DNA of 64,000 nt from Candidatus Levyibacteriota bacterium (GCA_016199085.1 JACQHJ010000001.1:72477-136476), one strand, 5' to 3'; shown: positions 1,155 to 49,181, counted from the first letter of the stretch. The notes: generated from the letters alone by a model not told the origin. Numbers and translations: made by a program.

Positions 1155-2249
1155 CTATTTTTCCCAAGGAAAGTGGTCTCTTCCAAAGTGGCCATAAGCA
1201 GAAGTTCTTAAATAAATTGGTCTTTGTAGATTTAATCCTTCAATTATTCCTTCAACAGAGGTATCTAAAAGTTGTTTCATAAAATCCTTTATAACTTTTA
1301 TATTTTTTTTCTCTGTTTGGAAAGTTTCAACATCCTGCATAACGGGTTTTTTAGCTCCGATAAAATAGGCAAGCCTTACTTCTGCTTTGTCTGCAAGTTT
1401 TTCTTTAACAATGTTTTTGGCAAGGTATCTGGCAGCATAAGCCCCACTTCTGTCAACTTTTGTCGGATCTTTTCCGCTAAAAGCTCCTCCCCCAACCCTT
1501 GCATATCCTCCGTATGTGTCAACGATAATTTTCCTTCCAGTCAGTCCTGCGTCTGATGCGGGTCCTGGCATATGCCAAACACCAGTTCCATTTACAATCA
1601 AGTCTTTAATGTTTATCTTAAATCCAAATTCATCCAAAACATACCCTACAACTTCTTTATAAAGGTCTTTTTTAACCTCTTTTATGTCAACATCTTCTCT
1701 GTGGGGAACTGCAATTACAACCTGGAGGATCCTAGAAGGCAGTCCGTTTTTATACTCTATAGTTACCTGAGATTTTCCATCAGGGCGAAGATATTTTAAA
1801 ATCTTTTTCTCTCGGACTTCGTCAATTCTTTGCGTTAATTTATGTGCAATCATTATCGGAAGGGGCATTAATGTTTTTGTTTCCCTGCAGGCAAATCCAA
1901 ACATCATGCCTTGATCTCCTGCGCCTTTTTTCTTTACTCCTTGTGCAATTTCCCTTGATTGTTCGTGGATATATATTTCAATAGGGGATTTGTCGCTAAA
2001 ATTGAAAATATCCTCTGTATATCCTAGGTCTCTTATTCTTTTTCTGGCAACTTTTTCATAGTCTATCTTCGCATTGGCGGTTACTTCTCCCGCAAGAACG
2101 ACTCTGTTAAAGGCAGCCATTGTTTCAACCGCAACTCTTCCATAAGGATCATGTCTTAAGACCTCGTCTAGGATTGCATCCGATATTGAATCACAAATCT
2201 TATCCGGGTGTCCGCTGCAAACTGATTCTGACGTAAAAATATAATCCAT
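1155..2249 (-). CDS. metK: S-adenosylmethionine synthetase
   Basis: GHPDKICDSISDAILDE, GAGDQG and GGGAFSGKDPTKVDRSGAYAARYLAKN signatures. Confidence 0.95.
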   Translation of the reverse strand: MDYIFTSESVCSGHPDKICDSISDAILDEVLRHDPYGRVAVETMAAFNRVVLAGEVTANAKIDYEKVARKRIRDLGYTEDIFNFSDKSPIEIYIHEQSREIAQGVKKKGAGDQGMMFGFACRETKTLMPLPIMIAHKLTQRIDEVREKKILKYLRPDGKSQVTIEYKNGLPSRILQVVIAVPHREDVDIKEVKKDLYKEVVGYVLDEFGFKINIKDLIVNGTGVWHMPGPASDAGLTGRKIIVDTYGGYARVGGGAFSGKDPTKVDRSGAYAARYLAKNIVKEKLADKAEVRLAYFIGAKKPVMQDVETFQTEKKNIKVIKDFMKQLLDTSVEGIIEGLNLQRPIYLRTSAYGHFGRDHFPWEK

Positions 2250-2373
2250 AAAAAAACTCTCAAAAAGAGAGTCAAGATTTTGTCTTTTTAAGACCTCATC
2301 CTCCAGGCACCGTAGTCTTTCTCGGTTGCCGGTCCGCTACTTTGCGGGCTCTCTTGATGAACAATACTTTAAA
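2250..2373 (-). promoter_or_regulatory. SAM-I-family riboswitch-like leader (SAM-I/IV-like, no P4) with an intrinsic terminator, directly upstream of metK
   Basis: Minus-strand RNA UUCAUCAAGAGAGCCCGC..GCGGACCGGCAACC..GGUGCCUGGAGGAUGAGG carries the P1, AAGAG, GCAACC, GGUGCC and GAUGAG core elements. It is followed by CUCUCUUUUUGAGAG plus a U7 tract immediately before the AUG. Confidence 0.55.
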
Positions 2374-34107: not shown

Positions 34108-34222
34108 GCATATATTATATCAGGCTATAGTTCGGTTTGAAATGTATCCTTACATGAAAGAAGAACCTCTGAAAATAAGTTTCTGGCTCGATTTAAATAC
34201 AGAAAAGATATAGAATAATATT

Positions 34223-37200
34223 ATGAATTTAACTAATTTTGTTAAGTATTGCCTTGGATATGTTAAGTTAACGAAACAAAGATCCTTTTTCTCCCAACAA
34301 AAAAATAGCCTAGAGCTTGATAAGGACCAACTAAATCTTGAAGGTTTGCTAAATGGAGAAGCAGATGGTCAATTAGCGGAGATAATAAATTTAAAGACGT
34401 TTTATTCAAATGATCCTAAAAATATAAGTGGGGAAGAAGAAGAGCAGTATCTGAAAGAAAAAAATTTAGCCAACAAAATTCAAGAAATTTACAATAAGTT
34501 TAGAAACGATCAGTTCACCAAAGAAATCGCAATAAACTTTGGATATTTTGAAATAGAATTAACCTTGGATAATGTTAACGAAGAAGATCAAGATGTGGAG
34601 ATTCAAGAAAAAGAAGTCAAGATAAGTAAATATCCTCTTTTTTCTCTTCCAGTAAAAATCGAAACACAAATAGAAAATGGAATCTACAAGTATTATCTTT
34701 ATTATTCGGACCAAGAGATTAAAGTAAATCTTAATGTATTAGAGAAATTATTTGATGAAAATAATAAAGCAGATACTTTTTATCAATTGATAGAAAAGAT
34801 TGGGGAGGAAGAGATCCAGGGCAAATTTTCTTTACCCATAATTGAGCATGACATACTTTATGAGACTTGGGATAAAGTAAGAGCATTATTAAAACTCACA
34901 GATGCAAAATTTGAGGATGAATCCTTCAATTTAGAAGAAAGTACTCTGTCTTTAAATTCAAAAAGTAATTATTTTTTAGCTGAAGATCTTTTAAAATTGT
35001 CTAAAATAGAAGCAGAAGAACTTAAGGGAACAGCGCTAGAGAGTTGGGTAAGTGATGCGGAAACAAATCTGGAAAGCGAAGTACCCAGTGAGGAGCAATT
35101 ATATTTCCCATTTCCATACGATAGATTTCAGCTTAAGTCACTTTCATTATTGGGTAATCAAGCATCCATAATTCAGGGACCTCCGGGAACAGGAAAATCA
35201 GAAACTATTGCTAATATCTTGTGTCATTTGGCTGCTAATGGAAAAAAAGTTTTGTTTATAAGTCAAAAATCCCAAGCATTGAAAGTGGTTAAAGATAAAT
35301 TAAAAAAAACTGGAATTAATTATATGTTTGGTTATGTTCCCAATCCAGCCTCCGCAAGCGTTACCGAAGAAGATGAAACGGATGGAATTGCCCCACAGCT
35401 TACTGCCTTAAATACTTTTATACAGAAGATGACTTATAAATTAAACTATTGGAATGAGAGAAAGGAGACATTAGGGACAATCTCTCAAAGAATAGGAGGA
35501 TTAAAAAAAAGTTTTAACTCAGTTATAGAAGATGAAAGAAATTATTTTACTCTTCATGAAGAACTAAATGAGCTCTTAAGATATAAAAGTGAAATCGGTA
35601 ATAATAAGGACTTTTTTGAAAATGCTGATTCTGAAAAATGGGAGAAGATTAAAGAATTGATTAATCAATTCCAGGCAGTTGATCTTGAATTATTAAAATA
35701 TAAAAAAAATAATAACGATTTCTCAAATAGATTCCCAATAGAACTTTTCCAAAACGAACAATATTCAATTAAGATTAATGAAATATTGAGTAATGTTTCT
35801 AAAACAGGTTATGATAGAAATTCAAAATTTTTTAGATGGTTGAATAATACTAAAAGAAACATAATATTAAGAAATGTAAGATCCGCCCTTCCCTCCGAAG
35901 TTATTAATGAAATCGACAAAATACTAAATAGTGAAATAAGTAAACATGAATCCAGTAGGCAATTAACTGAGTTAAATGAATTTATCATATTTAGAGAAAA
36001 TACTGTCTTAAAGCAGAAGATTAATGAAGAAATTAAAAAAGGTCTAGAGGTAATCGGTCTAAACATAGACCAATATAAAAATATAGAAAAAATAATAAAA
36101 CAGACTGGCATTGATTTCAAAATCTACAAGGATAAGATTGAAAAGATTAACGAGCTAGAAATACAATTGAAAGATTTAGCAAAAAATTATGATCTTTCAG
36201 AATTGAGAAAAAGCATTAACTCTTCTAAAATTAGTAGATCAAATGTTATAAGCTCCTATATTCAAAATATAATTAACAAAAGAATTATGGACAAGTGGAT
36301 GCTTCAAAATATAAAAAGAGTAGTTCTTAGATTAGCAAAAGCATTTGGTAAGTCGAAGAAAGCATACAAAACCTTCGATGAGCTTAGGAGAGATCCGGAA
36401 AATTTCAATTCTATTATTGACTTAGTGCCTGTATGGATTATGGAGCTTGACGATGCGAGTAGAATTATTCCATTAATGCCCAGAATGTTTGATTATGCAA
36501 TTCTAGACGAAGCTTCTCAATGCAATGTAGCCTATACGCTTCCAGTAATGTTCAGAGCTAAAAAAATTGTCTTTGTGGGTGATCCAGAGCAAATGAGAGA
36601 TAGCACGATTCGATTTAAAGCAAACAGGGATTTTGATGAGCTTGCTAAAAAATATAGTATTCCAGGTGATTTGCAAATAAAATCCACTGGAAATGCAGTC
36701 CAGTCAGTACTAGACATAGCCTTACTTAGAGGATTTAATTCTAATAATCTTCAGTATCATTACAGGTCACCAAAGGAACTTATCGGATTTAGTAATCAAT
36801 ATTTTTACAAACCCAAGGGTAAAGAATTAATCGCATTGAACAACAACTATCTTACATATAGAGATACCAACAGGATAATGTTAGTTCACGAAGTTGAGAA
36901 TAAAAAAAATAATAACGAAGAGATAGCAGATAATATTAATATTGCTGAAGCTAAAGCTATATTAAGTTTTTTTAAGGAATTAAGAGAAAATCCTAATACT
37001 AAAGATAAATCTATAGGTATTTTAACCTTCTTTAATGGACAAGCAACTTATATAAGAGAATTATTTGAGCAAGAAGGATTTAAGGAAGAAGACGATAACT
37101 ACATAGTTAGTATTATTGAAGGTATTCAAGGAGACGAAAAAGATATTATTTTGTATTCTTTTGTAATTAGAGAACTCGATCAAAAAAGAAAATATGGAGC

Positions 37201-38026
37201 ATTAACTGGAGAAGGAGGAGATATTTTAGGTGATATAAATAAGGGAAGGGTAAATGTTGCTTTTACTCGAGCTAGATTACAGGTTCATTGCTTTGTTAGT
37301 ATGGACCCACTTCCTGATAGAATTTGGATTAAAAAATTTATAGACTATATTAAAGAAAATGGAGAAATTAATTTCTATTCGAGCGAATTAAATGATTTTG
37401 ATTCTTTTTTTGAAAAAGAATTTTACGCATATGTAAAAGACTCACTCTCAAAGGAGTATCTTATCCAAAACCAGGTAGAAAGTTGTGGTTTTAAGATTGA
37501 TTTTGTAATCTCCTATAAGCAAACAGGTAAAAGACTCGCAATTGAATGTGATGGCCCAACACATTTCGAAAATGAAGTTGATCAAGAGCTCGGTATTTAT
37601 GTTGAAAGCGATGAAGAAAGACAAACTGTTCTGGAGGCGGCAGGTTGGAGTTTCTATAGAATTAAATATTCAGACTGGATAGATAAGAACAAAGTTAAGG
37701 ATGTATTTATAAATGAAATTAAAAATTATTTCAAAATTTCTTCTGAGAGAGAAACTATTATAGCAAAACCCAAAATAAGTAAGTATGAAGGTATAAAGAT
37801 AGATTTCGATTTAAATCCATATTTGAATAACAAAGAAGTTTGGTTCCTGTTGTCGGTTTGGGGTAAAAAGAGTGGTCAATTTATTGGATTTCAAAATAAA
37901 TTTTGTTATTCTCTAGGTAGATATCTTTCTAGGAAACCTGAGTTAACAGTTAAACAAGCAAACTATGGAAGATATCTTCTTAATACAGCAATTAAAAAAG
38001 GATTTTCCCTAGATGGAATTAAATGA
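34223..38026 (+). CDS. DUF4011 + SF1 (Upf1-like) helicase + C-terminal DUF559 / Vsr-like PD-(D/E)xK nuclease fusion
   Basis: Walker A GPPGTGKSE; LDEASQ; VGDPEQM; NYRSPKELIGFSNQYFY; VAFTRAR; C-terminal FKIDFVISYK...LAIECDGPTHF...AGWSFYRI. Confidence 0.8.
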   Translation: MNLTNFVKYCLGYVKLTKQRSFFSQQKNSLELDKDQLNLEGLLNGEADGQLAEIINLKTFYSNDPKNISGEEEEQYLKEKNLANKIQEIYNKFRNDQFTKEIAINFGYFEIELTLDNVNEEDQDVEIQEKEVKISKYPLFSLPVKIETQIENGIYKYYLYYSDQEIKVNLNVLEKLFDENNKADTFYQLIEKIGEEEIQGKFSLPIIEHDILYETWDKVRALLKLTDAKFEDESFNLEESTLSLNSKSNYFLAEDLLKLSKIEAEELKGTALESWVSDAETNLESEVPSEEQLYFPFPYDRFQLKSLSLLGNQASIIQGPPGTGKSETIANILCHLAANGKKVLFISQKSQALKVVKDKLKKTGINYMFGYVPNPASASVTEEDETDGIAPQLTALNTFIQKMTYKLNYWNERKETLGTISQRIGGLKKSFNSVIEDERNYFTLHEELNELLRYKSEIGNNKDFFENADSEKWEKIKELINQFQAVDLELLKYKKNNNDFSNRFPIELFQNEQYSIKINEILSNVSKTGYDRNSKFFRWLNNTKRNIILRNVRSALPSEVINEIDKILNSEISKHESSRQLTELNEFIIFRENTVLKQKINEEIKKGLEVIGLNIDQYKNIEKIIKQTGIDFKIYKDKIEKINELEIQLKDLAKNYDLSELRKSINSSKISRSNVISSYIQNIINKRIMDKWMLQNIKRVVLRLAKAFGKSKKAYKTFDELRRDPENFNSIIDLVPVWIMELDDASRIIPLMPRMFDYAILDEASQCNVAYTLPVMFRAKKIVFVGDPEQMRDSTIRFKANRDFDELAKKYSIPGDLQIKSTGNAVQSVLDIALLRGFNSNNLQYHYRSPKELIGFSNQYFYKPKGKELIALNNNYLTYRDTNRIMLVHEVENKKNNNEEIADNINIAEAKAILSFFKELRENPNTKDKSIGILTFFNGQATYIRELFEQEGFKEEDDNYIVSIIEGIQGDEKDIILYSFVIRELDQKRKYGALTGEGGDILGDINKGRVNVAFTRARLQVHCFVSMDPLPDRIWIKKFIDYIKENGEINFYSSELNDFDSFFEKEFYAYVKDSLSKEYLIQNQVESCGFKIDFVISYKQTGKRLAIECDGPTHFENEVDQELGIYVESDEERQTVLEAAGWSFYRIKYSDWIDKNKVKDVFINEIKNYFKISSERETIIAKPKISKYEGIKIDFDLNPYLNNKEVWFLLSVWGKKSGQFIGFQNKFCYSLGRYLSRKPELTVKQANYGRYLLNTAIKKGFSLDGIK

Positions 38027-38110
38027 AGTTAGCATTATGTTGCCATTTTATTATTTCTTCTTACCTTTGTTTTAATCCTCTACGCCTTTCTCATAGCATA
38101 AATAAACCGA

Positions 38111-38788
38111 TTACGAATGGCGGATGCCATACCAGCACATACACCAAGCGTAGTCTTTTTGTTCAATCCTGCTTGTGCAATCCTTGATAGGAAGTATTGG
38201 ATTATTCTTCAATTCATCAGCTGTATATTTTTTGCCCTGATACTTACTGCATTCTTCACAGCAATCCTGCGTTTCAACTTCAAAATAAGTGGGTAAAATA
38301 CCACCGATAGTGCCTAATTGAATTTCATAGTTATGAACGGATTTTAAGTAACTATAAGGGTCATGTCCTCTACGCAATTGATAAAGTGCCTGTGCAAAAG
38401 CTATCATTTTTGCATGGTGTAAAATACTTGATCTCTTGTCATAATCATTCTCAATTTCAGGCGGATGTCCCACCAATCTATTAGAGACTCCCCATACTAT
38501 GTCGTAGGATTTTGGTTTTGTTCCCCATTTTTTGGATAATTCAGCCTCAATTTTTAAATAATCATTAACAGTAGCTCCTAAATATTGGAGTTCTTTAAAA
38601 AAATCTGCCGCTAGGGCATCCTCCTGCGTTAAAATATCTGAATTAAATATGGTTTGTGTGGTTCTAATGAAACATTCTTCACCACATTTTTCGCATTTAG
38701 TCTTTCTCTTAGGTAGTTTCTCAAAAATAGCTCCGCAATATGGGCATTTATTGCGGTTTCTATCATCTTTTTTTTCGAATAGTCCCAT
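38111..38788 (-). CDS. hypothetical protein with an N-terminal Zn-ribbon (CPYCG..CEKCG) and a Cys-rich C-terminus
   Basis: CxxC pairs at both ends; no recognisable family. Confidence 0.4.
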   Translation of the reverse strand: MGLFEKKDDRNRNKCPYCGAIFEKLPKRKTKCEKCGEECFIRTTQTIFNSDILTQEDALAADFFKELQYLGATVNDYLKIEAELSKKWGTKPKSYDIVWGVSNRLVGHPPEIENDYDKRSSILHHAKMIAFAQALYQLRRGHDPYSYLKSVHNYEIQLGTIGGILPTYFEVETQDCCEECSKYQGKKYTADELKNNPILPIKDCTSRIEQKDYAWCMCWYGIRHS

Positions 38789-38848
38789 AGAGTCGATTAT
38801 ATATCATATTTGTGTATAATAAATTCTAATATCGCCCATTTAGGAGAA

Positions 38849-39412
38849 TTAAAACTCTGCATTTACTTCTAGCATTTCCATTCCTTCCTTATCTTCCAAT
38901 GTCAGTGTCTGTCCGCAGCTATCAAAATTTCCAGTTGCAATAACATATTGATCTAAATACTTACTAAAATCTAGATTTCTAACATACGGAAGCCTAACTA
39001 CATCTCCATCATTTTTAATAAGAACTGTTCTTTTATAAGTTTGTCTTGGTGCAAAATAATCTAGGAATGGATCAAGAAGAGGAATCTGCGAAGGAATATT
39101 GTCTTCTATATTTAATACTCTTATTTCTCCAATCTGGGATTGGGATCCTTTATCACAAAGTATTTTTCCTCCTCCGAATATTCCAAATACTGATAAAGCA
39201 AGGAATACTCCCATAATTCCAAGACTTCCTTTTAAAGTAAAGGAAAATGCTTTTTGTTTCTTTATATCTTCCAAAAGCTCAACGATCCTATATAAGGGGT
39301 TTCCTACATGGATATCTATTAAATCATCCTTTGTTTTTGAATAATGCGTATTTTCCTTAAAAAACTTTGAGATAGGATCTTTTGCCATCAATATAATTGT
39401 TACGCCTAACAA
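38849..39412 (-). CDS. hypothetical single-pass membrane protein
   Basis: Central TM GIMGVFLALSVFGIFGGG. Confidence 0.4.
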   Translation of the reverse strand: MLGVTIILMAKDPISKFFKENTHYSKTKDDLIDIHVGNPLYRIVELLEDIKKQKAFSFTLKGSLGIMGVFLALSVFGIFGGGKILCDKGSQSQIGEIRVLNIEDNIPSQIPLLDPFLDYFAPRQTYKRTVLIKNDGDVVRLPYVRNLDFSKYLDQYVIATGNFDSCGQTLTLEDKEGMEMLEVNAEF

Positions 39413-39720
39413 TAATAAATTGCAAGTAGAAATGTAACTTAAATTACCACAATTAAAATATGACTCTTATGTAGTTTGGGCAGGTAAAAATAGTAAAAGA
39501 GACTTATAGGAAATTGCTATAGTTAGGTTAACTTTTGTTTTAGTTTGAAATAGTTATTTGAGGCTATAAAGTATTCAAATATTCGTTTGACAAACCAAGC
39601 GACTTGGATAATTATACATATGTATAAGTAATTTCTTCATATCTTGAAGAAATTTACACAGGGTGTTATAATTGCAGTCCTTTGTACTGCCCCTAAGTAC
39701 ATTAAAATTGAATTTATCAC

Positions 39721-39794
39721 AAAGCCGACGAGATTCGAACTCGTAACCTTCCCGTTAGTAGCAGGTTGCTCTGTCCAGTTGAGCTACGGCTTTG
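39721..39794 (-). tRNA. tRNA gene with a short variable loop, no encoded CCA, and a hand-folded anticodon loop CU-ACU-AA
   Basis: Minus-strand AAAGCCG-UA-GCUC-AACUGGACA-GAGC-A-ACCUG-CUACUAA-CGGGA-AGGUU-ACGAG-UUCGAAU-CUCGU-CGGCUUU-G. Acceptor, D and T arms are canonical; the anticodon stem has an A-A mismatch. Confidence 0.6.
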
Positions 39795-40457
39795 ATAGTT
39801 AAAACTTACTAAAGTGGCCCGTCTAATTAACTAATTAGCCCATACGATTAGAAGTCGTTAGGAACTAAAAGACCATTAGGTAGAGTTTTCCAGAGCTTCC
39901 CATCTACCAAGATGTACGGAAGCTCTGTTGGTATTTCTACCCCGAACTTATCGTCCGTATTCATGATTAACCACCTCTATCTGGCATCGGTTCAAAGAAC
40001 TTAAGCCTGCCCGACTTCTCTTTGTCGTGCATACCAGAGAATAGTCTTTCGACGGACCACTTATAATAACTTTTAAAGTACTTTCCCTTTTTTTACTATT
40101 TAATAATTATTTTTACTTCATGTTAAATAGCAAAAAATAGCTCGACTTGTAAAACCTACAAGGCGAGCGTGTTCCAAGTCGCACCAATGATCAATTGTTT
40201 TAGAAACTTACCTCACCTTGAGGCTTCGTAGGGTCTCATGTCGTTAACTCGACCCTAGCCCTACTAGCCCGTTTCTAAGGCGTTCTACTAGAGCCGAGTA
40301 AACGATATGAAACTCAACTATATATGGTATATCATTTAGCACTCGAAAAATCAACTGCCAACTTACAGTTTCGTGTCTGCCATTACTTGCTCAAACTACA
40401 TAAGTGCCTAAAATATCTCTTGACTTTAAAATTTAAAAATTTTATAGTCCACCTTAT

Positions 40458-40784
40458 ATGGAAATTGAGCCTCCAATACAGCAACTTTTAGATTTTTGTA
40501 GACAAGGAAGAACTTTGGTAACAGGCTTTACAAATAAAACATACAATTTGCCAACCGGCGAACAAAAAACAAGCTACTCTTTTGTTTTAGAAAGACGTAA
40601 CTTAAGAAGTCAGCTCCCGACAACCTTAGATGTATTCAATCAAGCAAGAGTTGTTGTTTCTCACTGCGCCTGGAAACTAAGCGAAACTCCACAAGGAAGA
40701 AGATTGGTAGAAAATATTACTGCGATTGGTAGAGTCAGACCTAACCCAGATCAACCAACAACCATTTTTGGTCTTAGACGCTAG
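40458..40784 (+). CDS. hypothetical protein (108 aa)
   Basis: ORF only; preceded by TTGACT-17-TTATAG. Confidence 0.3.
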   Translation: MEIEPPIQQLLDFCRQGRTLVTGFTNKTYNLPTGEQKTSYSFVLERRNLRSQLPTTLDVFNQARVVVSHCAWKLSETPQGRRLVENITAIGRVRPNPDQPTTIFGLRR

Positions 40785-40804
40785 CCTTTTTATCTAACCA
40801 TCCC

Positions 40805-41143
40805 TTGTTGTATAATTCAAAAATGATTCCGCGTACAGAATTACAACTTGAACATGTAGGTATGGAAGTAGATACATATCAGACGATTGCTGTTTTTAAG
40901 TCTGATTGGGCGAGAAATCCTCAGGATGTAATAACGGCAAAAGACAAATTAAAAAGGGATTTTCATCCCTCAACCTTAAGAATAAGGCAAGATGCCGAAG
41001 TTACAGAAACACCAGATGAGATAGTTTTCCATCCCATACTTGTTTGGACGGCAACCTGGATACATGGGTATACTCCCATAGTGCCTAATCTTGTAGATCT
41101 GCATGAAGATTATCTGTTTCATTACAACCTTCCTGCGTTATAG
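40805..41143 (+). CDS. hypothetical protein (112 aa)
   Basis: ORF only. Confidence 0.3.
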   Translation: MLYNSKMIPRTELQLEHVGMEVDTYQTIAVFKSDWARNPQDVITAKDKLKRDFHPSTLRIRQDAEVTETPDEIVFHPILVWTATWIHGYTPIVPNLVDLHEDYLFHYNLPAL

Positions 41144-41147
41144 ATAT

Positions 41148-41900
41148 ATGTCAAGAAAACTTGAAGCAAGAGAAAACGCCAAAAAAGGAATCAGAGACCA
41201 GGACCCCCGCGTAGAAGTCCCACGCTTTATCCCTCCAATGTTGGTTGGGGAATTAGGAACCAGGAATCTGTCTTTGCTTGACAGGCAGAAACGCTTCTAT
41301 GAGGTTAAGGCAGACGGGTACAGAACCATAGTAACCATTAGGCATGGCGAGGATGGCCCAATAGTCAGGCTATTATCAAAAAACGGAAAAGATATAACCC
41401 AAAGATTTCCTTTGGTTACAACTCAACTTGCAGACATAAAAGATGAAGTCGTATTAGACGGAGAAATGGAAGCTTTAAGACCAAGGCCAGATGCACTGGG
41501 AATAACAACCCAAGAAGAAAACGCCCTTTTTGAGATGTATGGAGGTTTGGTTCCTGACAGGAATTTACTTTCTCTTTCAGCCATTCATTTAAGACACGTA
41601 GATTACAGACTTAGGTTATTTGATATCCTGTTTTTAAACGGAAGGCATTTGACTACAAAGCCTCTTTCGGAAAGAAAGCTTTATTTAAATGAAGTTGTTC
41701 CGGATGAGTTAAGCGCAGTTTCGACTGTTCCATATTTTGAATATACCTCCGATGCAGCACTGCTTAGGCTTTTAAAAGCAGTTGATAAATTCGGTCTTGA
41801 AGGAATGGTAGCTAAAAGAACAGACAGCGTTTATACGCCGGGTAGAAGAAGCGACAGATGGCTAAAGATAAAAAGAACACCGCAACAACCAATCCACTAG
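41148..41900 (+). CDS. ATP-dependent DNA ligase, nucleotidyltransferase domain only (no OB domain)
   Basis: PPML start, motif I YEVKADGYR, motif III DGEME, motif IV EGMVAK and motif V GRRSDRWLKIK; the ORF ends right after motif V. Confidence 0.7.
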   Translation: MSRKLEARENAKKGIRDQDPRVEVPRFIPPMLVGELGTRNLSLLDRQKRFYEVKADGYRTIVTIRHGEDGPIVRLLSKNGKDITQRFPLVTTQLADIKDEVVLDGEMEALRPRPDALGITTQEENALFEMYGGLVPDRNLLSLSAIHLRHVDYRLRLFDILFLNGRHLTTKPLSERKLYLNEVVPDELSAVSTVPYFEYTSDAALLRLLKAVDKFGLEGMVAKRTDSVYTPGRRSDRWLKIKRTPQQPIH

Positions 41901-41954
41901 CTCTTGCCCTATAGTTTGCCTTTTAGAAACATTTTCTGTATAATCCCATCTGGC

Positions 41955-43451
41955 ATGGCAGTAAGAAATGAAGCAATAGAGCAATCCGCACAAGCAATCT
42001 CTTTTCCTTTCGCACACGGTACAAGGCCTGAAACAGCTCGTATGTTAATTGACGCACGGGAATCAGGAGTCTTAGAAGGGCTAAGACCGGCAGTACGCGA
42101 ACTAATTGATAGATATTACGGAACAGATGCAAGCCTAAAAGATCTTGGCGTTGCTGCAGGAATGAGCACAAGTCACATCGGCGTAAGACTTAGACAGGGA
42201 CTGGAAGAAATAAGAGAACTTTTGGGAGACGAAGTTACGGAAAAATACCCAAAAGAAGCAACTCTACTTAAGTTAGCCATGCCAAGACCACCAAGAGATT
42301 TAGATCAGGTTCAAGCGCCTTTTCCGATTTCTGTAAGACTTGACACACCTCAAAAAGAAACAAGACACAAAGAGGCAATGCAAAGAGTTTTTGAAAGACC
42401 CCCTGTCTATTTTAAGTCTTCAGAATATTTGCTCAGAAGATATGTTCCTCCTAAAATGCCTGACCAAGAACCCCATGGAGAATTAATGCCTATGACCCAA
42501 AGGGTATTAACTTTAATAGGAAGGGGACTTACCTACGCTGAAATTGCTCCGATAGTCGGAATGTCAACGAAAATGGTTGGGTTCGTAATAGGAAGAAAAG
42601 TTATCCGTCCGGTCATGCAAGTTTCTAACCCGCATGAAGCATTGGTAGTAAGTTTAACAAAGGGTCTTGTTAGTCTTCGCGAAGCCTCGAAAGGGTTAAA
42701 TTTATCAGACGAAAATGTTGACAGTCTATCAATTCGGGCAGTAGAAGTATTAATTGCTGATACAGTTGATAATCTTGGAATGACCAGAAAGCAGATAGGA
42801 GAAAGAATAGGTAATACAGAAAGTGCAATCGAAGACCTCAGGACAAGAATATATCAAAAACTTGGAGTATTAAGTAAAGCTCAGGCCACTGTATTTGTTA
42901 TGGCATATGTTAAGAAAGCTATGTATGAGAGAAGATATCCTATAAAAGATACGATTGAAGGTGGGGGATCTTTTGAGGATTATCATGCACCTGAAGCTCC
43001 TGATATTCAATACACTATTGATTATTTAAAAAATGTTGGAATTAGTGAGCGTGATAAGCAGGCATTTCTTATTCATTTCCTTTGGTCTGAAGGTAGGGGT
43101 ACATACGCTTTGATTAGAAGACATTTACGGTTAGAAGACAGACCAATAATAGAAGTTTTGCTTAATAGAGTAATCGATGCAGAAGTGGATCCGAGATATT
43201 CAATTCCTGTTTTGGATATCTATCACAATATTTTTGCTCCCATCGAACTTGCAAGAGTTATTTTTTTCAACAATAAAGGAGAAAGGACTTATGAAAGATT
43301 TAGGGCGTTGGTAGATATCTGTAGGAAAAGAATAAGAGAAGAGCATATAACAGGCTATAAGCCTTCTACGAGAACAGAGCTTAATATTGAGGCACAAAGA
43401 CTTCTTGATCAGAGAAAAGCGGCAAGGCAGGAGGTTGTAGTTTTTGACTAA
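41955..43451 (+). CDS. regulator with three tandem sigma70-r4 / LuxR-type HTH units and an unknown C-terminal domain
   Basis: LKDLGVAAGMSTSHIGVRLRQGLEEIR, LTYAEIAPIVGMSTKMVGFVIGRKV and RKQIGERIGNTESAIEDLRTRIYQKLGV. Confidence 0.5.
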   Translation: MAVRNEAIEQSAQAISFPFAHGTRPETARMLIDARESGVLEGLRPAVRELIDRYYGTDASLKDLGVAAGMSTSHIGVRLRQGLEEIRELLGDEVTEKYPKEATLLKLAMPRPPRDLDQVQAPFPISVRLDTPQKETRHKEAMQRVFERPPVYFKSSEYLLRRYVPPKMPDQEPHGELMPMTQRVLTLIGRGLTYAEIAPIVGMSTKMVGFVIGRKVIRPVMQVSNPHEALVVSLTKGLVSLREASKGLNLSDENVDSLSIRAVEVLIADTVDNLGMTRKQIGERIGNTESAIEDLRTRIYQKLGVLSKAQATVFVMAYVKKAMYERRYPIKDTIEGGGSFEDYHAPEAPDIQYTIDYLKNVGISERDKQAFLIHFLWSEGRGTYALIRRHLRLEDRPIIEVLLNRVIDAEVDPRYSIPVLDIYHNIFAPIELARVIFFNNKGERTYERFRALVDICRKRIREEHITGYKPSTRTELNIEAQRLLDQRKAARQEVVVFD

Positions 43452-43474
43452 ACCTCAAGTGATATAATTAAAAA

Positions 43475-44356
43475 ATGAAAATCCTCTTCGATACAGATAT
43501 CGGTTCAGACATAGATGATGCCTTATGCCTTGCCTATTTATTGGCTAATCCCAGCTGTGATTTATTGGGTGTTACTACGGTAACCGGAGAGGCTGAGAAA
43601 AGAGCGATGATTATTAGCGCCTTGTGTCAAAACGCGGGAAAGAATATACCTATTTTTCCAGGAGCAGAGACTCCTCTTTTGATTTCTCAAAAGCAAATCC
43701 AAGCTCCTCAGGCTTTAGCTTTGGATAAATGGCCGCACAAAAAGTCTTTTCCTAAAAGGGAAGCAGTACGTTTTCTGCAAGAGACTATTCGTAACAATCC
43801 TCACGAGATAACTCTGTTGGCAACAGGACCATTAACTAATATTGCACAGCTTTTTAAAATTGATGAAGAAATACCTTCACTTTTAAAAGGTTTGGTGCTT
43901 ATGTGCGGGGCGTTTAATGATAAGGCTGCTAACTTGGGTACTTGTGATTCTGTTGAGTGGAATGCTCTTGTCGATCCACATGCTGCAGATATAGTTTATA
44001 AATCAGCTGTTAAATCCCATAAATCGGTGGGGTTAAATGTTACATGTAAGGTAAAATTAAAGAAAGAGGTTTTAAAAAAACGATTAAGTGTTAGTCATTT
44101 ACTTACTCCTATAGCTGACTTTGCTGAGATTTGGTTTCAAGAAGAAGGCGAGGCTACTTTCCACGATCCACTGGCAGCCATCACAATTTTTAACCAAGAT
44201 GTATGTGTTTTTGAAAACGGAAAAGTAGAAGTTGAATTAATAAGTGAAGAACTCAAAGGAATGACCTATTTCACCCCTGGAGAGGGTCAAAATCAAGTTG
44301 CTTTACACGTTAATATAGATAAGTTTTTCGACAGTTATTTTGCAGTGTTTAAGTAA
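43475..44356 (+). CDS. inosine-uridine preferring nucleoside hydrolase family
   Basis: N-terminal DTDIGSDIDDA (DxDxxxDD) motif. Confidence 0.85.
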   Translation: MKILFDTDIGSDIDDALCLAYLLANPSCDLLGVTTVTGEAEKRAMIISALCQNAGKNIPIFPGAETPLLISQKQIQAPQALALDKWPHKKSFPKREAVRFLQETIRNNPHEITLLATGPLTNIAQLFKIDEEIPSLLKGLVLMCGAFNDKAANLGTCDSVEWNALVDPHAADIVYKSAVKSHKSVGLNVTCKVKLKKEVLKKRLSVSHLLTPIADFAEIWFQEEGEATFHDPLAAITIFNQDVCVFENGKVEVELISEELKGMTYFTPGEGQNQVALHVNIDKFFDSYFAVFK

Positions 44357-44416
44357 TAACTATATGCGGTTATTATATAGAGGATTGTTGAATACATAAC
44401 TACCTCATAGTAATTA

Positions 44417-44445
44417 TTGACATCTGTTACATTTTTTGCTACAAT
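44417..44445 (+). promoter_or_regulatory. strong sigma70-type promoter TTGACA-17-TACAAT
   Basis: Near-consensus hexamers about 300 nt upstream of the 44745 ORF. Confidence 0.5.
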
Positions 44446-44616
44446 TTACCCAACAATTAAAGAGTGCGTTTAAAGAAGAAGAGTAAGTTTAATATTAGAT
44501 TTTAGCAAGTGATGACAGCTGAAAGCATCATAATCGAAAATTAACTGAAAAGAGCTTCTTAGCACAGAACCGAAGAAAGCATTTGCAAGTAGGTTTATAA
44601 ATGAGCTATCTATAGA

Positions 44617-44733
44617 CTCTGTCAAGGTTGACACAGAGCTTTTTTAGTACAAAATAGATAGGAATAAAGGTGGTACCACGGGAATTCCCGTCCTTGTTTC
44701 GAAAGTAATTTCGAAATGAAGACGGGTTTTTTT
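44617..44733 (+). promoter_or_regulatory. structured 5' leader with two intrinsic-terminator-like hairpins and a competing antiterminator palindrome
   Basis: Hairpin 1 is CUCUGUCAAGGUUGACACAGAG plus U6. Hairpin 2 is CCCGUCC...GACGGG plus U7. The ACGGGAAUUCCCGU palindrome shares the CCCGUC strand with hairpin 2. Confidence 0.45.
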
Positions 44734-44744
44734 ATGGAGAAAAT

Positions 44745-45875
44745 ATGAAAGAATTTGGGCAACATTTTTATATTCCGGAAGGAATTTTAGTTCAAGGACC
44801 AAGCATAGCTAACGGTTCTGGCTCTTTTGTGGCAGAAGCGCATAGTGATGAGGTATTAACGCCAGGTGCAATTAATTGTTTGAGAGATCAATTCGCGATA
44901 GACATGGAACTAGTTGCAGCTGATCTTAAAAGCGATGGATTAGCAAGGCAATATGCTGGCTCGTTATTTAAAAAACTAGTAGGTAATGGAGCAAATACAC
45001 TTGAACAGCTAGTAATAGCTGGATCACAGGAGTTTTACCATGTTGGTAAATATGTTTTAGGGCCATTGGCAGTAAGTGTTGTAGATACTGTTTTAAAAGG
45101 GTGTAATGGAAAAGCCATCTTTCCTGCAAGGGATGCAACTCCCTTTTTCCATATCGCTAAAACTCTCAAGAAGCTTAATCCAGATGCTTATCCAGTAGCC
45201 ATGGATGATATTGTAAATCCTGATTTTAATAGAACGCTATGGGGAGTAGAAGATGAAGAAGATCAAGATCCAGAAGGTGAAGTAATGTCAGTTTCCCACC
45301 CATTAGTACAAAAACTTTTATCTCAAATGGGATTTTTCTCTGATCAGCCTAAAACTTTTATAGAAGTAGGTTGCTGGGGTTCAATGGTAGATGAGTTAAA
45401 TAAAGCAATGAAGAAAGGTGATATACCCACAGAAGAATATTCTGTTTATTTCCTATATACACATTTGCCAAATAATATTTATGGCTTTACCAATATTGTT
45501 GGAGAAAATATACCCGAAGACGTACTTGAGACAATAGCAGATACATGGGAAGCATTCCCTAAATTTTACAAAAAGGTAAAAAAATTAGTCGAAGAAGACG
45601 GCATAGTAAAAGGTTCACGAGTGTTTGTCAACTCACCTTTTTTGCAACCTTGGACAGAAGCTGCTTTACAGGGTGTTGAAGATGCAGCAAGTGATTTCAT
45701 TTGTCAAGGACAAGTTATAAATCCTCAAGATGAGTTGTTAAAACTTTGGCGATTATCTATTCAAGCGCAGTCTGGCCAATTTACTGGAGTATTACCTGGA
45801 CATACAAAAACATGGTCTAAAGGAGAAGAATGGAAAGCTAATTGGAAATGGGGGAGGGTTCCGCCATTAAAGTAA
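44745..45875 (+). CDS. hypothetical protein (376 aa), first gene of the leader-controlled operon
   Basis: ORF only; GC noticeably above the local background. Confidence 0.4.
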   Translation: MKEFGQHFYIPEGILVQGPSIANGSGSFVAEAHSDEVLTPGAINCLRDQFAIDMELVAADLKSDGLARQYAGSLFKKLVGNGANTLEQLVIAGSQEFYHVGKYVLGPLAVSVVDTVLKGCNGKAIFPARDATPFFHIAKTLKKLNPDAYPVAMDDIVNPDFNRTLWGVEDEEDQDPEGEVMSVSHPLVQKLLSQMGFFSDQPKTFIEVGCWGSMVDELNKAMKKGDIPTEEYSVYFLYTHLPNNIYGFTNIVGENIPEDVLETIADTWEAFPKFYKKVKKLVEEDGIVKGSRVFVNSPFLQPWTEAALQGVEDAASDFICQGQVINPQDELLKLWRLSIQAQSGQFTGVLPGHTKTWSKGEEWKANWKWGRVPPLK

Positions 45876-45887
45876 AAGGAGCAAAGT

Positions 45888-46673
45888 ATGTTTAATAAGT
45901 TATTCAAAAATAATAAGCCAATGATTGGAATGATCCATTTACCACCCTTACCGGGGTATATAAAACATCCCGGAATGGATGCAGTGATAAAAAAAGCCCT
46001 AATAGATTTGAATACATTGCAAAAAGCAGGTTTTGACGGGGTGTTAATTGAGAATGACAATGATCAGCCACATCAAATTGGAGTTTCAAAAAGTATTACT
46101 GCATCGTTTACTAAAGTAATGAAACAGGTCTGTAAAGAAGCAAAAATACCTGTTGGAATGGAGATAATTTATGATATGCCACAAACTATCAAAACCGCTC
46201 ATAAAGTGGGAGCAGATTTTGTACGCCTTGATGTTTTCGTAGATACTGTTTTGACAAAATGGGGAAAAATACCATCCCAAGCTAAAGAGCTGGTTGTCTT
46301 AAAAGAGAAAATAGGTGCAAAAGAATTAGTCATGTTAACTGATATTCAAGTTAAGCATGCGCAAATGTTAGATAAAAAGACTTTAGAACAATCAGCTAAA
46401 GAAGCAGCTCAATATATTTCTAATGCGCTGATAGTTACAGGAGATTGGACAGGTCATCCTCCTTTTATTAATGATTGCAAGAAAGTAAAAAAAGCTGCAA
46501 AAGCAACACCTCTCCTTATTGGTAGCGGTTTGGATAGTAAGAATATTAAGAAGTTATTTAAATATGCAGACGGTGCAATTGTGGGAACTTCAATTAAAAC
46601 AGGAGATTATATTGATCTTGTCAAAGCAACAAATCTTATAAATGTTGTTAAAAAAATAAGGAGTAAGATATGA
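45888..46673 (+). CDS. BtpA/SgcQ-family TIM-barrel protein
   Basis: MIGMIHLPPLPGY...GFDGVLIEN N-terminal signature. Confidence 0.7.
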   Translation: MFNKLFKNNKPMIGMIHLPPLPGYIKHPGMDAVIKKALIDLNTLQKAGFDGVLIENDNDQPHQIGVSKSITASFTKVMKQVCKEAKIPVGMEIIYDMPQTIKTAHKVGADFVRLDVFVDTVLTKWGKIPSQAKELVVLKEKIGAKELVMLTDIQVKHAQMLDKKTLEQSAKEAAQYISNALIVTGDWTGHPPFINDCKKVKKAAKATPLLIGSGLDSKNIKKLFKYADGAIVGTSIKTGDYIDLVKATNLINVVKKIRSKI

Positions 46674-47491
46674 AAATTATTAGCGTTGGCGACATAGGTA
46701 TTGATGAATATGTAGATCTCGGTATTAAAAAACCAGGAGGAATTGCTTTTAACTTTGCTGTTAATGTTATTAAAAACAATACTGATTGTTCTTTGCTAAG
46801 TGTAATAGGGAAAGATCAAGAAGGAAAACAGCTAAAAAACCTATTGCACAGTTTAAATATTGATATATCTCATCTTCAGAAAGTAAATGGGAAAACAGCT
46901 AAGCAGAATATTGCGCTTAAAGAAAATGGAGAGAGAAAATTTGTTGGATACAATGCTGGAGTTTTTAATAAATGGCATCTAAGTAAAAAGGATATTAACT
47001 TTATTTTAAAACATAATGTTGTTTTTGTTTCCCTATCTGATGGGCTGGAAGACATAGTTCATGCAATAGCTAATTTACAAGGAAATATAACAAAAATAAT
47101 TGACTTTTCTCAGGATTATAAATTTGCTGATTTTGAATCTGAGGATAACTTAATCGCAAAACATTGTATTAATTTCGACATTATTTTCATAGGAGGAAAT
47201 GAAAAATTGATAAAGCGAGTTAAAACACTCGGTGCTAAATTTTCTGAGAAGTTATTTATTCTTACTCTTGGCAACCAAGGAAGTCTAGCGTTTCAAAACG
47301 ACAGATCTTATTTTCAAAAGGCAAAGAAAATAAAGAAGATTATTGATACAACTGGATGCGGTGATGCATTCCAAGCAGGTTTTGTTACTGCTTATTTAAA
47401 CAATAAAGATATTCAACAAGCTTTAAACTCTGGAGCAAAACAAGCAGAGTCTGTAATAACTCATATTGGCTCTACGGAATTAAATTTATAA
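46670..47491 (+). CDS. PfkB-family carbohydrate/nucleoside kinase
   Basis: DTTGCGDAFQAGFV PfkB signature 2 and an N-terminal GG-containing sugar-binding region. Confidence 0.8.
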   Translation: MKIISVGDIGIDEYVDLGIKKPGGIAFNFAVNVIKNNTDCSLLSVIGKDQEGKQLKNLLHSLNIDISHLQKVNGKTAKQNIALKENGERKFVGYNAGVFNKWHLSKKDINFILKHNVVFVSLSDGLEDIVHAIANLQGNITKIIDFSQDYKFADFESEDNLIAKHCINFDIIFIGGNEKLIKRVKTLGAKFSEKLFILTLGNQGSLAFQNDRSYFQKAKKIKKIIDTTGCGDAFQAGFVTAYLNNKDIQQALNSGAKQAESVITHIGSTELNL

Positions 47492-47493
47492 AT

Positions 47494-48369
47494 ATGGAAA
47501 CTATTAAACCAGTACCAGTAGAAATAGCTAAGGAAAATAAAGGTATCCTAAAAGTCAAAGAAACTCTTAAGAATGGAGGATGGGCATTCTTTGATGTTGA
47601 CGGAACACTTGAAGATACAAATGGAATTCCAATTGATCTTAATACGTACTTACAGTTACTAATATCTAATGGTGTTGAGTTAGGCATTTCTACCGGAAGA
47701 TGCCAAACAGACTTAATCAGGTTTTTTAGCAAAGTAGGTGATTCATATAGGCAGTTATTTAAGGGGTGGTTATTTTTGGAAGATTCACACGTAACTGTTG
47801 AGCCAGGCAATTCCATAAATGAAGCAGCAATATTGACTGACCCTAAGACTTTACAAGAAATGGAAATGTTTGAGAAGTTATTTACTTCTAGTTGGTTACC
47901 TTCGGAGGCTTTACCTGGTTGGGGTTTCTTGAAAAACTTACCTGCTCCTCCAGTTAAATTACCACAATATCCTCACTATGGAACAGTAGCTATTTGGGAG
48001 AAAGGACCTTATGAAAGTCCTGAATATGGATTAATGATGGTGTGGGCGTTAAATGCAGCAAGACAGTTAGGTATAGAGACTATAGAATTTTTAGAAACAG
48101 GTGACGGATCTCTAAGGCTACTACAAAAAGGAATTAATAAGGGAACAGGATTAAAAACATTGGTAGAAAGAGGAATAATAGATTTAAGTAGAACTGTTTA
48201 TTTTGGAGATGCAAATAATGATATTTCAGCAGCAGAGATAGTATCAAATGGCGGTGGAGCAGTAGTAGCGCTTGCAAATGCCACAAGAGGTTTCAAAAAT
48301 GTCTCAACACACGTAACATCACATCCAGCAGGATTGGGTGTTATAGAGGTTGTAAAACAACTGTATTAA
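47494..48369 (+). CDS. HAD-superfamily (IIB/Cof-like) phosphatase
   Basis: FFDVDGTL motif I and GDANNDISAAE motif IV. Confidence 0.7.
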   Translation: METIKPVPVEIAKENKGILKVKETLKNGGWAFFDVDGTLEDTNGIPIDLNTYLQLLISNGVELGISTGRCQTDLIRFFSKVGDSYRQLFKGWLFLEDSHVTVEPGNSINEAAILTDPKTLQEMEMFEKLFTSSWLPSEALPGWGFLKNLPAPPVKLPQYPHYGTVAIWEKGPYESPEYGLMMVWALNAARQLGIETIEFLETGDGSLRLLQKGINKGTGLKTLVERGIIDLSRTVYFGDANNDISAAEIVSNGGGAVVALANATRGFKNVSTHVTSHPAGLGVIEVVKQLY

Positions 48370-48439
48370 ATTCAACCTTACAGATCTGCAAATACAATAA
48401 TTTCTTCCTAAGTTCGGTGGGCCATGTTATAATTTCTTG

Positions 48440-48786
48440 ATGCAAGTTATTAAATCTAAAGACAAAAGCTGGGAAGAAAACCAGGGCACAGTAAAAAGAT
48501 TTTAATTGATGATATAGATAAAAATAATGTTGTAGTTCAAGAAGTTAAAATAAAGCCGCAAGAAAGTGCTAGGACACATTTCCATAAAATCCAAACAGAA
48601 GTATTTTATTTTCTCACCCATAACGGGTACTGGGTTATGAATGGAGAAAAAAGGGAATTTGGAATTGGAGATATCCTAATCATAGGACCAATGGATGAAC
48701 ATTGTGTGGTAAATAGAACAAATAAAGATTACTTATATCTTGCTTTTAAATATAACTACGATTCTAAAGATATCTACTGGAAATAA
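48440..48786 (+). pseudogene. cupin-domain gene split by a frameshift in an A5/T4 homopolymer near 48495-48505
   Basis: Frame 1 gives MQVIKSKDKSWEENQGTVKRF then a stop. The shifted frame continues LIDDIDKNNVVVQEVKIKPQESARTHFHKIQTEVFYFLTHNGYWVMNGEKREFGIGDILIIGPMDEHCVVN, a cupin beta-barrel pattern. Confidence 0.5.
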
Positions 48787-48806
48787 AATGATATAATTTT
48801 TGGGCA

Positions 48807-49157
48807 ATGGATGATAAGAAATTTAAACAGTTAATTTCAGAAGCTTTGGATTCACTTCCTAAAGAATTTGCCCAAAAGTTAAATAATATCGGAGTTGTCG
48901 TCGAAGATACTCCAACTCCGCATCAACTTAAAAAAGTAGGTCTTCCTCCCTGGGCTTTGTTATTTGGTCTTTATGAGGGTATTCCTCAGACAAAAAGAGG
49001 AGTATATTACAGCCATATTCCTGATAAGATTACTATTTTTAAAAATTCAATAGAAAGGGTTGCAAGAACAGAAGAAGAAATTAGGGCCCAGGTTAGGGCA
49101 ACCGTAATTCATGAAATAGGACACCACTTTGGATTATCAGATGAACAGCTAAAGTAG
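48807..49157 (+). CDS. small HExxH zinc-metallopeptidase-like protein (DUF1025-like)
   Basis: VIHEIGHHFGLSDEQ. Confidence 0.5.
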   Translation: MDDKKFKQLISEALDSLPKEFAQKLNNIGVVVEDTPTPHQLKKVGLPPWALLFGLYEGIPQTKRGVYYSHIPDKITIFKNSIERVARTEEEIRAQVRATVIHEIGHHFGLSDEQLK

Positions 49158-49181
49158 TTAGCGGATGGTATAATTACCTTA

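Follow-up and report, generated by a model that had tools for sequence, protein, structure and literature searches.

A folded, protein-free segment beside an arginine-type tRNA gene as the putative body of a non-autonomous insertion cassette in a Candidatus Levybacteria chromosome

The DNA analysed here, referred to as the window, is a 64,000-nucleotide stretch of a Candidatus Levybacteria chromosome (candidate phyla radiation, CPR) that carries ordinary genes (metK, metG, the dnaK operon, nusA-infB, pnp, ftsK, alaS, rpoBC and fusA). Two of its genes, encoding a 179-aa protein (38849–39388, minus strand, ATG at 39388) and a 108-aa protein (identical to HY344_00585, 40458–40784, ATG at 40458), diverge from each other across a long noncoding gap. 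Within this gap a tRNA gene directly adjoins the segment 39795–40457, for which a preliminary description had proposed a structured noncoding RNA (ncRNA) or the remnant of an element. On balance, we regard this segment as the body of a 947-bp non-autonomous element (39462–40408) resembling MITEs (miniature inverted-repeat transposable elements) and mobile insertion cassettes (MICs), the cargo of which would be RNA genes. The parts of this putative cassette and its borders are as follows.

39454–39461, no strand: left 8-bp direct repeat TAAAATAT, directly outside the left inverted repeat; putative target-site duplication
39462–39487, no strand: left terminal inverted repeat GACTCTTATGTAGTTTGGGCAGGTAA, 22/26 positions shared with the right end, 20/22 in the core
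39488–39718, no strand: AT-rich arm, GC about 0.27, with plus-strand promoter-like sites at 39587–39615 and 39644–39672
39719–39794, minus strand: tRNA gene, anticodon ACU, class-I shape, no encoded CCA
39795–40076, minus strand: structured domain B, minimum free energy (MFE) −100, z −6.5
40077–40139, minus strand: AT-rich spacer, GC 0.17, with a promoter-like site, an A/U hairpin and a U-tract
40140–40168, minus strand: terminator-like hairpin GCUCGCCUUGUA-GGUUU-UACAAGUCGAGC, −14.6 kcal/mol, 11/12 stem pairs
40169–40382, minus strand: core of structured domain A, modelled with a four-way junction (40372–40203), z −5.1
40383–40408, no strand: right terminal inverted repeat, reverse complement GGCACTTATGTAGTTTGAGCAAGTAA
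40409–40416, no strand: right 8-bp direct repeat TAAAATAT, upstream of the −35 box in the 108-aa gene promoter at a distance of 3 nt

The tRNA gene and the folded segment are bracketed by a 22-nt inverted repeat (39466–39487 and 40383–40404) with 20/22 matching positions, and in the 64-kb window the partner was the sole match to this core (E = 0.002). The repeat lengthens to 26 nt at 22/26 matches, GACTCTTATGTAGTTTGGGCAGGTAA being the left end and GGCACTTATGTAGTTTGAGCAAGTAA the reverse complement of the right end. At the same offset outside both ends we found the 8-bp direct repeat TAAAATAT. When the flanks were shuffled with their composition kept, the chance of an 8-bp repeat at a symmetric offset of 0–10 was 0.0013. 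As terminal inverted repeats together with a target-site duplication are the signature of DDE transposases, this arrangement points to an insertion by an enzyme of this type. The unit between the direct repeats measures 947 bp and holds the AT-rich arm, the tRNA gene and the folded segment. Deletion of 39462–40416 leaves a divergent intergenic promoter region of 114 bp, which is a normal size for this compact genome; the relative L002 has a gap of about 77 bp. The reconstructed empty site reads ...CCACAATTAAAATATCTCTTGACTTT.... Neither an ORF (open reading frame) search nor Pfam on the six-frame translation revealed a transposase or a remnant of one inside the 947-bp unit. The unit therefore displays the hallmarks of a MITE or MIC, namely terminal inverted repeats, a flanking target-site duplication and the lack of an internal transposase gene. 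An extended inverted duplication between the two arms of the cassette was not found. The cassette ends with GACTCTT on the left and GGCACTT on the right, each matching the GGCTCTT of the ISL3 family of insertion sequences (IS) in 6/7 positions. Ends of the type GGCTCTTCG together with 8-bp repeats have been published for ISL3 elements and for a MITE derived from ISL3 (PMC6305408 Table 3; PMC11448079), and direct repeats of the same length flank the cassette.

The interior of the cassette is devoid of recognisable protein-coding sequence. In line with the preliminary description, no ORF of 60 aa or more is present in 39795–40457. Stops are evenly distributed throughout the six frames, the maximum stop-free run comprises 64 codons, and the longest start-to-stop ORFs overlapping the segment encode 55 aa (40324–40491, plus strand) and 52 aa (39644–39802, plus strand). 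Likewise, reassigning any single stop codon, as in alternative genetic codes, did not produce a convincing ORF in this segment. Pfam and PHROGs searches with stop-to-stop pieces and six-frame translations of the folded segment gave no match, and in 76 related loci (1.17 Mb) the region had no tblastx match, which excludes a recognisable decayed gene. The small ORFs of the region are absent from the protein collection as well. Inside domain B, an ORF of 38 aa (39848–39964, minus strand) has a GAGGUGG box 6 nt ahead of its ATG. As Shine-Dalgarno-like motifs occur in just 8 of 53 window genes and no homologue of this ORF was found, it is probably fortuitous.

The base composition of the segment likewise agrees with the preliminary description, which had called it GC-richer than the neighbouring intergenic DNA: its GC content is 0.379 versus 0.276 beyond the tRNA gene, at a window mean of 0.369. 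The value splits into two richer blocks, 39795–40075 (domain B, 0.406) and 40140–40410 (domain A, 0.432), separated by a 64-nt AT spacer (0.172). The four sequence strings that had been quoted as hairpin arms or as RNase P-like are all present, at 40140–40168, 40211–40223, 40231–40255 and 39939–39963, and the tRNA gene lies directly beside the segment as described.

The dense hairpin potential that had drawn attention to the segment is far beyond chance, as judged by shuffle z-scores and by tiling of the entire window. Folding of the whole segment yielded z = −8.9 (minus strand) and −7.9 (plus strand). When the halves were folded separately, z amounted to −6.5 for domain B and −5.1 for domain A, and none of 200 and none of 100 shuffles, respectively, were equally stable. 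Moreover, the centroid and MFE structures are almost identical for both halves. For the tiling, the MFE of 228 tiles of 280 nt was compared with that of shuffled sequences on both strands. The tiles over the segment took ranks 1 and 2 on each strand, with the most extreme values on the minus strand, where the MFE excess over shuffles was −31.1 and −24.1 kcal/mol versus a background mean of −1.5 (sd 5.7).

According to the predicted fold, domain B consists of a rod of about 35 bp (40076–40040 with 39877–39799) that closes a multi-branch core, including a perfect 10+5-bp hairpin (39891–39927), and the 3′ strand of the rod stops about 5 nt short of the 5′ end of the tRNA. In domain A, the model places an 81-nt hairpin at 40233–40313. 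The spacer between the domains contains the only minus-strand promoter-like match (TTGCTA-16-AATAAT, 40133..40106), a 15-bp A/U hairpin (40137–40123 with 40103–40089) and the U-tract UAUUUUUUG, located directly after the terminator-like hairpin. The latter, predicted at 40140–40168, was overlooked in a terminator consensus scan because of one C·U mismatch. The U-run follows it on the minus strand only, as in an intrinsic terminator.

Several features favour the minus strand, which is also the strand of the tRNA gene, as the RNA strand. In the segment it contains 150 G versus 101 C, and individual hairpins lose 10–12 kcal/mol on the plus strand (−38.4 versus −26.6 kcal/mol for the 81-nt hairpin of domain A, and −10.5 versus −0.9 kcal/mol for another). 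The folding excess of the whole segment over shuffles, about −45 to −49 kcal/mol, is alike on both strands, so that most helices must be of the Watson-Crick type. In a strand-neutral fold calculated without G·U pairs, the helices are interrupted or flanked on the minus strand by 21 G·U versus 2 A·C oppositions, a difference reached in 2 of 200 shuffles. This asymmetry suggests selection at the RNA level.

The neighbouring tRNA gene scored 58.3 bits, aligns end to end without interruption and keeps the conserved tertiary positions. It possesses the full identity set of a bacterial tRNA-Arg, A20, C35, U36 and G73, in agreement with the published set A20, C35, U/G36 and A/G73 (PMC9976931 Table 1), and its best sequence matches are tRNA-Arg genes. 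The anticodon ACU lies outside the standard arginine set (ACG/ICG, CCG, UCG, UCU, CCU) and is complementary to the serine codon AGU. The label 'Ser' assigned by ARAGORN rests on the anticodon alone, and the long variable arm is missing. An exact-pattern scan of 185,579 GTDB species genomes for the anticodon arm returned no match. The gene could encode a mistranslating or recoding tRNA, could be a U34-to-A mutant of tRNA-Arg(UCU), or could reflect an assembly error. If active, a tRNA of arginine identity with this anticodon would decode the serine codon AGU wrongly.

Known RNA families were searched with cmscan and the 4227 families of Rfam 15, at the gathering score over the window and, with permissive filters and E≤10, over 39300–40600 and each half. 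At the gathering score, only the tRNA and an unrelated SAM riboswitch emerged from the whole window. The preliminary description had named RNase P RNA, a divergent tmRNA and an intron-like element as possible identities. At E≤10 on both strands, the scans for RNase P RNA, tmRNA and group I/II introns produced nothing beyond the tRNA and chance matches, and no match to 6S, SRP, ROOL or GOLLD RNA was obtained in these intervals on either strand. ARAGORN likewise reported one tRNA and no tmRNA. As both approaches thus recover the neighbouring tRNA only, all of these families are excluded as far as detectable members are concerned. A group I/II intron was also rejected in view of the uninterrupted tRNA. 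Hence, of the proposed structured ncRNA the strong folding stands and an Rfam family does not; such an RNA is plausible yet unproven, as no homologue was found in which covariation could be assessed.

An AlaS scan of GTDB species genomes yielded at least 68 related loci. The preliminary description had looked to conservation in related genomes for confirmation, and this was not borne out: blastn, nhmmer and tblastx of 39400–40500 detected nothing similar in these loci or in the set of 76, and the closest relative found lacks the block. In this relative (L002), which shares 84–92% protein identity with the window, the 179-aa gene and a nucleoside hydrolase gene (window 43475–44356) are divergent neighbours about 77 bp apart, as opposed to about 4 kb in the window. 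The additional 4 kb comprise the AT-rich arm, the tRNA gene, the folded segment and the genes for the 108-aa protein, a 106-aa protein, a ligase and a 498-aa protein. A housekeeping RNA is therefore unlikely, and, since the loci of the relatives show no such segment, we consider it accessory DNA. In more distant relatives, alaS directly adjoins the DUF5674-rpoB cluster, which identifies the stretch from 34 to 49 kb as a variable hotspot. The flanks of this hotspot (34108–49181, alaS to DUF5674-rpoB) are adjacent in L006 and L007, and other gene sets occupy it in L001 and L002.

Searches beyond the related loci were equally negative. With blastn, 50,697 phage and 72,556 plasmid records yielded a match to the tRNA only, exact-pattern scans of IMG/VR gave no match to the tRNA arm, the terminal repeat or core sequences of the two folded domains, and no second copy was found within the window. 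Exact-protein look-ups of window proteins retrieved nothing beyond two short Logan contigs, both belonging to the same study. The 498-aa and 108-aa-like proteins co-occur beside Zincin_1-rpoB in other relatives; every contig with this pair either stops short of the relevant position or diverges upstream of it, and the same applies to the contigs, at least five, with homologues of a 515-aa protein. The 108-aa neighbour itself was a singleton in a word-indexed search and has a 36%-identical partial homologue in L072.

Additional observations concern the surrounding genes. At 34223–38026 (plus strand), a low-GC (0.30) block encodes a 1267-aa superfamily 1 (SF1) helicase with an attached nuclease domain of the REase_MTES_1575/DUF559 type. 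Similarity to the anti-phage proteins Hhe, ProA and PDC-S37 was seen with scores under their cut-offs, and the sequence is probably a defence gene acquired by horizontal transfer. The ligase gene (41148–41900, plus strand) specifies a LigD-type ATP-dependent ligase reduced to the adenylation domain; all of its homologues possess an OB domain, which it lacks, and the nearest of them shares only 36% identity with it. The 498-aa protein (41955–43451, plus strand) contains three sigma-70 region 4/GerE helix-turn-helix units. Proteins with about 54% identity to it are encoded in a few relatives (L069–L074) directly upstream of Zincin_1-rpoB-rpoC, with a cupin gene and a gene for a 108-aa-like protein ahead of them. 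The SAM-I/IV riboswitch (2266–2365, minus strand, 55.6 bits) lies directly upstream of metK (1155–2249, minus strand), an ordinary arrangement. Most genes of the window carry a TATAAT box 6–9 nt ahead of the start codon (e.g. 43460–43474, 40443–40457 and 40808–40822), which, together with the few Shine-Dalgarno-like motifs, suggests widespread leaderless mRNAs in this Levybacteria genome. Among the relatives, ARAGORN reported in L069 (11056–11147), downstream of rpsG and DUF5343, a 92-nt tRNA-Trp(CCA). Its extra region is unusually long, and it may carry an insertion or an intron. Furthermore, many GTDB records titled 'uncultured Gammaproteobacteria' (L001–L013; binchicken, SRP co-assemblies) are syntenic with the window at 57–92% protein identity and evidently represent mislabelled CPR genomes.

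Taken together, these results are best accounted for by a cassette of the MITE/MIC type. The 'element remnant' of the preliminary description would accordingly be the interior of a cassette with terminal repeats and a target-site duplication, and not an att region. In the sequence of events that we propose, a DDE transposase acting in trans, which recognises GGCTCT-type ends and generates 8-bp duplications (ISL3-like or IS6-like), would have placed the cassette at the target TAAAATAT, situated within the short promoter region from which the 179-aa and 108-aa genes diverge. Its cargo would be read from the minus strand throughout and contain no protein gene; it would consist of the ACU tRNA of Arg type and, on the upstream side of this tRNA, two domains that each measure about 280 nt and fold independently. 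Domain A may constitute an sRNA-like (small RNA) unit of about 270 nt that ends at the hairpin and U-tract (40168–40131). Domain B and the tRNA may form a second transcription unit initiated within the AT spacer. Cleavage by RNase P at the 5′ end of the tRNA would then free domain B, an RNA of about 300 nt with the rod of about 35 bp as its closing helix, and a rod of this length may serve as a substrate of RNase III.

Several observations weigh against this interpretation. Just one copy of the cassette is known, and everything rests on it. A second copy or an autonomous parent was found neither in the window nor in the 76 related loci (1.17 Mb) nor in IMG/VR, and Pfam detected no transposase in the 64-kb window. 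No homologue was found, and hence there is no covariation support for the predicted structure. The empty site is not visible, since the nearest relative lacks the whole block of about 4 kb including the 108-aa gene. The alignment score of the inverted repeat was attained by 1 of 200 shuffles in one test. The repeat could alternatively be a long-range RNA helix; its two mismatches are G·U pairs on the plus strand. The strand asymmetry of G·U and A·C oppositions lies at the edge of, not beyond, the genomic background, which spans −20 to +16; it is thus supportive, not conclusive. Moreover, a good plus-strand promoter (39644–39672) is directed into the segment, and the minus-strand promoters are weak matches. 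Finally, the likeness to ISL3 ends spans 7 nt only, at 6/7 per end, and IS6-family ends, such as GGCACTGTTGCAAA of IS26 with its 8-bp duplication, fit about equally, so that either family may apply.

A bolder version of the cassette interpretation would see in it an RNA-only transposon moved in trans, with an Arg-type tRNA reading AGU and two large RNAs of an undescribed family, that is, a CPR counterpart of ROOL and GOLLD on an IS-type vehicle. This version appears to us rather unlikely.

A resident, non-mobile and lineage-specific ncRNA locus is less probable still. Here, the tRNA and both folded domains would belong to a single minus-strand precursor from about 40410 to 39460, the ends of which would pair via the 22-nt complement in the manner of rRNA or tRNA processing stems cut by RNase III, and the TAAAATAT repeat would be a coincidence of AT-rich DNA. 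The MFE structure of 39460–40410 on the minus strand does pair both ends, with a nested helix of 40173–40182 and its perfect 10-nt complement in the AT-rich arm (39599–39608), and strong structure throughout as well as the co-oriented tRNA are in keeping with such a precursor. However, the end helix contains two A·C mismatches on this strand, the internal terminator-like hairpin with its U-tract would halt the precursor, the symmetric 8-bp direct repeat has a probability of about 0.001, and the locus is missing from the closest relative.

To the same small degree, we consider an inert relic, that is, decaying foreign or rearranged DNA in the variable hotspot, the folding of which would be inherited from a former role or be inherent in the DNA of the element. 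Its uniqueness, with no homologue in any collection searched, would fit, as would the odd or decayed neighbours in the hotspot (the tRNA with the non-standard anticodon, the OB-less ligase and the low-GC defence-like helicase). Neutral decay erodes helices, yet the segment provides the two most stable tiles of the 64 kb with well-defined ensembles. The excess of G·U over A·C, with its hint of RNA-level selection, the retention of all conserved tertiary positions in the tRNA and the lack of a protein remnant also argue against decay.

It is distinctly improbable that the plus strand is the functional one, giving rise to a long structured leader or antisense RNA that would run from the promoter at 39644–39672 through the tRNA to the operon of the 108-aa gene. 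The best promoter match of the area (TTGAAG-17-TATAAT with TG) is on this strand, the plus-strand fold is nearly as extreme by its z-score (−7.9), and the end helix is perfect there with two G·U pairs. By contrast, a leaderless-type promoter at 40420–40448 already serves the 108-aa gene, the orientation of the hairpin and U-tract suits the minus strand, several helices lose much of their stability on the plus strand, and C exceeds G on it.

A very low probability is assigned to a DNA-level site of a former plasmid or phage, such as a replication or single-strand origin, an att site or a packaging site working as folded single-stranded DNA. The similar folding excess of both strands is compatible with such a site, whereas no Rep, integrase or phage gene lies nearby, PHROG matches are lacking, and no similarity was detected among the phage and plasmid records searched. 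The 'decayed att region' suggested by the preliminary description does not fit either, as the segment is located on the 5′ side of the tRNA, no integrase is present and direct repeats of the tRNA 3′ end were not found.

Last, the idea that divergence conceals an RNase P RNA, a tmRNA or a group I/II intron from easy recognition is effectively refuted, despite short P4-like strings at 39939–39963 and 40007–40022, by the lack of any covariance-model match at E≤10 on either strand, halves included, by the size of the domains of just about 280 nt each and by the absence of the locus from the nearest relative. The first of these strings had been likened to P4 of RNase P RNA in the preliminary description; it is present, and its complementary partner is absent, so that P4 is not formed, the second string having the same sense and not being complementary, and the MFE structure pairs both elsewhere.

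With respect to known systems, the cassette shares with MITEs and MICs of the ISL3 and IS6 types the short imperfect terminal inverted repeats and the 8-bp target duplication, and it is likewise situated in an AT-rich intergenic promoter region. Its end sequences are similar to those of ISArsp7 and of a Microcystis ISL3 element and its MITE. As no transposase gene lies inside, the cassette would rely on a transposase provided in trans. In contrast to these elements, it is known from a single copy with no parent IS found, and its cargo is a tRNA gene and about 600 nt of structured noncoding sequence rather than a protein gene or a collapsed IS; with 947 bp it lies at the large end of the MITE range.

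The segment recalls RNase P RNA in the strings GAAGUCGGGC and AAGUUCGGGG, reminiscent of conserved region I (CR-I)/P4, and in its long closing helix; it differs in that no covariance-model match and no P4 partner exist, in its too small size and in its absence from the sister genome. The neighbouring tRNA shares its identity set with tRNA-Arg and differs by the ACU anticodon. As in tRNA-linked precursors matured by RNase P, domain B ends about 5 nt before the 5′ end of the tRNA, and cleavage by RNase P would therefore set its 3′ end.

ROOL and GOLLD are large ornate bacterial RNAs that often occur beside tRNA genes and in prophages, an association that is unexplained (PMC5737381). The likeness of the segment to them is one of context only, in that about 0.6 kb of ORF-free sequence with a predicted multi-junction structure lies co-oriented beside a tRNA gene in accessory DNA. 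Unlike ROOL and GOLLD, the segment has no Rfam match, is split into two domains by an AT spacer with a terminator-like hairpin, has no known homologues from which a consensus structure or pseudoknots could be derived, and resides in a CPR host.

MITEs, MICs and large tRNA-linked RNAs are already known; a transposon-like cassette in a CPR genome that combines a tRNA gene with about 0.6 kb of structured RNA lacking known relatives would be a novel variation on them. If it is just a single decaying insertion, it is a well-explained oddity that accounts for an unusually long noncoding gap in a compact genome. Mobile elements and noncoding RNAs of CPR bacteria are little studied, and, if the cassette interpretation is correct, vehicles of the IS type carry pure RNA cargo in these small compact genomes. 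The folded domains would then represent a new family of large structured RNAs and provide a further case of the unexplained association of tRNA genes with large ornate RNAs.

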